NCBI GenBank assembly: GCA_964016885.1
Contig: OZ024763.1
Coordinates: 1,488,001-1,552,000, forward strand
Direction of reading: 5' to 3'
From: Eledone cirrhosa
Lineage: Eukaryota
DNA: 64,000 nucleotides
The notes under the pieces were generated by a model, which saw only the letters and a list, made by a program, of their open reading frames with translations, did not search any database and was not told where the DNA came from. Of the stretch, positions 13,673-13,757 are shown one piece after another (the stretch's first letter is position 1; each line of letters opens with the position of its first letter). Both the position numbers and the translations under genes were made by a program.

Positions 13673-13757
13673 TTCTTTTACCGAAATAATTGGCACTTGA
13701 CTGGTAAACGCAGAGGGTGAGGAGAAGAAGAAGGCAAACACAGTATGAAGACTTCAT
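13673..13757 (-). CDS. First coding exon of an NdWFamide-family neuropeptide precursor (NYFamide)
   Basis: aacATG start; MKSSYCVCLLLLLTLCVYQSSA-NYF-GKR; signal peptide directly followed by tripeptide, Gly and dibasic site; phase-1 donor A|GTAAGT. Downstream exons not identified. Confidence 0.8.

Follow-up and report, generated by a model that had tools for sequence, protein, structure and literature searches.

A candidate first coding exon of an NdWFamide-type neuropeptide precursor in the octopod Eledone cirrhosa, predicted to encode Asn-Tyr-Phe-NH2

The window, by which we mean the whole stretch of 64,000 nucleotides of Eledone cirrhosa DNA analysed here, carries a short open reading frame on its minus strand that extends exactly from 13757 to 13673. 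Its translation reads MKSSYCVCLLLLLTLCVYQSSA (22 residues), followed directly by NYF, a single G and KR, with one spare base, A, at 13673. The start codon and the predicted 22-residue signal peptide ending in S-S-A occupy 13692..13757, as judged from translation, hydropathy, the -3/-1 rule and the likeness to a squid precursor described below. The predicted mature tripeptide Asn-Tyr-Phe is encoded at 13683..13691, with TAT as the tyrosine codon at its second position, and the glycine and the Lys-Arg pair follow at 13674..13682. The final exon base and a consensus donor, GTAAGT at 13672-13667, make up 13667..13673; the donor is in phase 1 and lies 85 nt into the coding sequence. The start ATG has an A at -3, and a motif scan of 13758-13960 detected no upstream ATG. 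Thus, the signal peptide with its S-S-A end, the NYFGKR sequence and the donor noted at 13673..13757 in the first-pass annotation were all found, on the minus strand.

The cleavage site of the signal peptide was judged by hydropathy and the -3/-1 rule. The most hydrophobic window of eight residues comprises residues 6-13 of MKSSYCVCLLLLLTLCVYQSSA, with a mean hydropathy of 3.52. Of 12 positions tried, two have small residues at -3 and -1, so that a cut could follow either C16 or A22. A22 is the better site because C16 ends the hydrophobic core. Cleavage is therefore predicted after A22, which would leave NYF at the N-terminus. Glycine in this position serves as amide donor and Lys-Arg as convertase site in established neuropeptide processing.

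Four public sequencing runs (X1-X4) of one study, all listed with no library type, contain the stretch, and their contigs were compared with window positions 12000-15400. X1, X2 and X3 each contain a 352-letter contig that covers 13602-13953 and passes across the donor at a depth of 3-5. The X4 data set comprises 88 million letters compared to about 1,400 million in X1-X3, and its contig 30 (667 letters, depth 82) behaves differently. Letters 386-667 correspond to 13673-13954 with no mismatch, whereas the first 385 letters match nothing within 12000-15400. The match stops at 13673, which is the predicted exon end. Relative to repeats, the depth of the exon is approximately 5,600-8,400 times higher in X4 than in X1-X3. 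This ratio was calculated with four repeat bins picked by the analyst out of 30 and is taken as a hint only, because expression is poorly reflected in the depth of contigs. The contig pattern is that of a spliced transcript; most simply, X4 would represent a transcriptome in which the donor is used. In the same contig, 197 nt upstream of the ATG are colinear with the genome. A motif scan revealed a TATA-like sequence, TATATAAA, at 13884-13877 on the minus strand, which had been considered as a promoter; the X4 contig reaches past this box (13884) up to the edge of a microsatellite. Judged from the mismatch-free contig and the scan for upstream ATGs, 13758..13954 (minus strand) is likely a 5′ leader or promoter-proximal region.

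A phase-1 acceptor scan and two scans for the C-terminal motif of related precursors returned only repeat-derived or unrelated frames as exon 2 candidates in the window. Since no convincing exon 2 was found there, the intron would exceed 13.6 kb if exon 2 lies past the window edge. The presumed first coding intron would then take up at least 1..13672 on the minus strand, a region crowded with simple repeats and the remains of transposons. An intron of this size is in line with the 2-17 kb given for the cone-snail gene in the accessible part of PMC13542836, and the position of the donor agrees with the statement in the same source that the first intron of molluscan neuropeptide genes is typically in phase 1 and located 50-100 nt into the coding sequence. 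Genes of this family are easily missed because of the 28-codon exon and the long intron.

Database searches with the exon frame gave no relative. Among protein subjects of 30-97 residues there was no candidate, and among those of 98-2000 residues two candidates were obtained, none at E<=10. A single match among 1.84 billion representatives was a tandem repeat of 2,350 residues with zero matched stretches and was discarded as an artefact. The Pfam search of the exon frame returned no family. In the ESM Atlas the best score was 0.82, with recognition below threshold; the neighbours listed were mostly short prohormones with the peptide placed after the signal, which serves as a lead only. With a query of just 28 residues, empty protein searches say little. 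As neither a database relative nor a Pfam family was obtained, homology rests on a comparison by eye with the supplement of a published survey.

This survey, De Oliveira et al. 2019 (PMC6425005), lists 11 precursors together in one block in the available portion of its supplementary file 3, and three of the 11 bear the name NdWFamide. The block carries no header, so that assignment of all 11 to NdWFamide is inferred from the interleaved named entries. The tripeptides are NWF (three entries), NWY (three), HWY (three), NFY (one) and NYF (one); position 2 is aromatic in 11/11, and Trp2 is absent from two. The NYF entry, 'idiosepiusNotoides.204382' from the pygmy squid Idiosepius notoides, is repeated in the supplement of Thiel et al. 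2021 as far as accessible (PMC8557429) and encodes, as in the Eledone exon, NYF-G-KR straight after the signal peptide (21 residues in the squid compared to 22 here). Aligned by eye with one gap and no E-value, 14 of 28 residues are identical, including 8 of the 22 signal-peptide residues. The positions shared within the signal peptide comprise M-K-S, C-x-C, L and Q-x-x-A.

The arrangement is typical of the family as a whole. NdWFamide precursors from Aplysia, pulmonates, bivalves, chitons, nemerteans and phoronids carry [N/H]-aromatic-aromatic after the signal peptide, followed by G-KR. Phoronid HWY and nemertean NWY entries are labelled NdWFamide in the accessible supplement of Thiel et al. 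2021 (PMC8557429), and NWYamide is the name used for the family's scallop peptide (PMC5996578, in part). According to the entries available from PMC6425005, relatives contain a single peptide copy and then a conserved associated peptide of about 55 residues with the pattern F-x-x-[YF]-L ... I-x-x-[LI]-[VL]-x-x-W. The Eledone exon displays a tripeptide right after the predicted signal peptide, NYF-GKR, and N-terminal likeness to an assigned member. One feature counts against membership. The last exon base before the donor is A, and the codon of the residue after KR must therefore begin with A, whereas Idiosepius has Asp at this position and the codon is G-initial throughout the 11-entry block (PMC6425005, supplementary file 3). 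A G-initial codon is not absolute, since the Charonia entry has Ser after KR in the portion of PMC8557429 that is available.

Taken together, the region 13757-13673 on the minus strand very probably represents the exon with which the coding sequence of a cephalopod NdWFamide precursor ortholog begins, and the precursor is predicted to release Asn-Tyr-Phe-NH2. The same NYFGKR in Idiosepius and the point at which the X4 contig leaves the genome, at the 13673 donor, bear out the family, the architecture and the peptide proposed in the first-pass annotation. The view of the exon as a surprising divergent variant is not supported, because NYF had already been published for a cephalopod, Trp2 is dispensed with by two of the 11 entries, and peptides with D-Tyr at position 2 are known from Aplysia. 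NdWFamide in the strict sense has Trp2, and the Eledone sequence has Tyr. The exon most likely encodes a member of the NdWFamide family but not NdWFamide itself.

Since NYF was contained in cephalopod data of 2019, the Tyr variant is not new. An octopod NYF member was not found reported. Published work already covers the family, the variation among its sequences and peptides with D-Tyr at position 2. The 11-entry block in the accessible part of PMC6425005 includes no octopus entry, and the Loligo atlas supplements (PMC9839350) gave zero matches. NYFamide is named in no main text of the open literature searched; subscription papers such as cuttlefish peptidomes may list an octopus ortholog. Two literature matches of 'NdWF' with Octopus vulgaris were the formula 'LnDWf' and not a peptide. 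The finding changes no concept; its contribution is one more member, probably from an octopod, of a neuropeptide family that is small. Exon and squid entry together suggest that NYF, rather than NWF, is the coleoid form.

Two other origins of the exon have to be considered. A chance reading frame or a dead exon within a repeat-rich gene desert would explain why the exon has just 28 codons, why 13.6 kb could be scanned with no exon 2 found and why the protein databases were without a match. We regard this as very improbable. In the six frames of the window, 1 of 32 G-dibasic sites (GK[RK]/GRR) has a signal-like stretch upstream, and this is the NYF exon, which is also the only match to [NH]-aromatic-aromatic-G[KR]R. 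Dinucleotide shuffling of the bases outside tandem repeats (29,395 out of 64,000) produced a signal with a G-dibasic site in 21/300 cases, the [NH]-aromatic-aromatic-G[KR]R pattern in 1/300, and a signal with G-dibasic site and donor in 0/300. As the patterns were picked after the site had been seen, these numbers demonstrate no more than that noise does not commonly yield the combination. The architecture absent from the shuffles, the precise break of the contig at the donor base, the intact frame and the squid counterpart with the same motif all argue against chance. A duplicated paralog or a copy recruited to venom ('doppelganger' toxin, as in cone snails) instead of a neural ortholog is improbable too, if less so. 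Gastropods have two NdWFamide genes (PMC6425005, in the part available), and in cone snails NdWFamide has a splice form that belongs to the venom gland (PMC13542836, likewise in part). The Conus doppelganger toxins derive from the same gene family and, like the presumed intron of the Eledone locus, their introns are large and repeat-filled, but they use a venom-specific 5′ UTR exon (PMC13542836), and no sign of venom expression was seen here. A toxin copy would be expected to diverge, whereas the tripeptide is the same as in the squid and the signal peptide is conserved. Moreover, a survey of cephalopod venom glands that included an NdWFamide model named, in its accessible part, only stanniocalcin, luqin, myosuppressin, tachykinin and neurotensin mimics (10.64898/2026.02.02.703354). 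An ortholog is considered more likely than a paralog.

If the exon belongs to an ortholog, the transcript would be spliced at 13673 to a distant exon that, as in the relatives, may encode an associated peptide of about 55 residues. Signal peptidase would cut after Ala22 to expose the N-terminal Asn. Once a prohormone convertase had cleaved behind Lys-Arg and a carboxypeptidase had removed the basic residues, an amidating enzyme would convert the Gly to the amide, giving Asn-Tyr-Phe-NH2. A peptide isomerase may turn Tyr2 into D-Tyr. The product would be released from neurons and could modulate heart or visceral muscle by analogy to Aplysia, where NdWFamide is cardio-excitatory and occurs in neurons supplying heart and vessels (PMC5364533, in the part available). 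The predicted Eledone peptide differs by Tyr2 from the Trp2 of NdWFamide (Asn-D-Trp-Phe-NH2), and both the D-form and cardio-excitation were reported for the gastropod peptide.

By analogy to Aplysia, the odds that Tyr2 is isomerised to D-Tyr are about even. According to the available part of PMC11277431, both NWFa and GYFD are converted by extracts of the Aplysia central nervous system, in which the residue at position 2 can be Phe, Tyr, Trp or Leu. The animal itself contains GdYFD and an SdYA- peptide (PMC11277431). These achatin-like peptides resemble NYF as short N-terminal isomerase substrates in which Tyr2 is followed by Phe, but their precursors form a separate multi-peptide family whose products are acidic and non-amidated (PMC11277431). 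The title of a study of cardioactive peptides from Octopus minor brain is cited in the same source among D-residue peptides. The competing reading, to which we give nearly an even chance, keeps gene and peptide and makes the mature product all-L (Asn-L-Tyr-Phe-NH2), the D-residue not being carried over to cephalopods. It is consistent with the D-form being described for gastropod NdWFamide only in the accessible parts of PMC5364533 and PMC11277431 and with the isomerase data having been obtained with extracts of Aplysia, for the most part on GFFD analogues instead of NYFa (PMC11277431); isomerisation itself leaves no trace in DNA. Against an all-L product stands the Aplysia activity, which acts on each of the three aromatic residues when placed at position 2 and also on NWFa (PMC11277431, in part), as does the aromatic residue at position 2 throughout the 11 family entries available from PMC6425005.

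Returning to the D-tyrosine product, the complete proposal that coleoids make an Asn-D-Tyr-Phe-NH2 hormone whose gene was missed by octopod annotation and is named in no searchable paper is tentative, and we place its chances somewhat below even. If true, cephalopods would have a D-amino-acid neuropeptide that comes from a second precursor family. With its natural exchange of Trp for Tyr, this peptide could be used to probe how specific isomerase and receptor are, and it would be a candidate cephalopod heart regulator. We know of no identified receptor for NdWFamide, and a natural Tyr variant would help to match one. A peptide of three residues is a cheap and concrete target, as its L- and D-Tyr forms can be synthesised, traced in octopus ganglia and tested on hearts.

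Tandem repeats make up 54% of the window, and apart from the NYF exon only transposon remnants were seen. One of these is a near-complete LINE-type reverse transcriptase at 19430-21294 on the plus strand, which is read in two frames split near 20560. Its part at 19430-20569 matched Pfam RVT_1 with an E value of 2.5e-31. The best match among 8,000 candidates scored was a protein of Argonauta hians with 58% identity, 47 bits above the next. The interspersed repeats of the window are, we assume, octopus-like, and together with the Argonauta match, in itself a weak indication, they point to an octopod. A short element at 4716-5566 carries terminal inverted repeats of 103 bp with 97% identity. Its helix-turn-helix frame is broken and matches HTH_32 at a score under the curated cut-off; we take the element to be a deleted transposon of the Tc1/mariner type.

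A minisatellite unit of approximately 120 bp occurs in two arrays, at 9700-11640 and 24000-25440, both of which are flanked by one interspersed repeat (11691-11821 and 25512-25641, 90% identical). The shared minisatellite and flanking repeat look as if an element carrying the array had been copied. Fold-back palindromes of 110-400 bp are unusually numerous. They are located at 189-298, 1750-2085, 2783-2906, 6398-6525, 8332-8465, 12956-13136, 27785-27961, 31203-31587 and 37746-38028, often edge AT microsatellites and duplicate the end of a neighbouring repeat. A genuine mutational process acting on (AT)n tracts could have produced the fold-backs, as could an artefact of assembly. Finally, a marginal tRNA match at 60571-60634 on the plus strand (29.9 bits at an Rfam threshold of 29) is unrelated to the NYF exon and probably represents the head of a tRNA-derived SINE.
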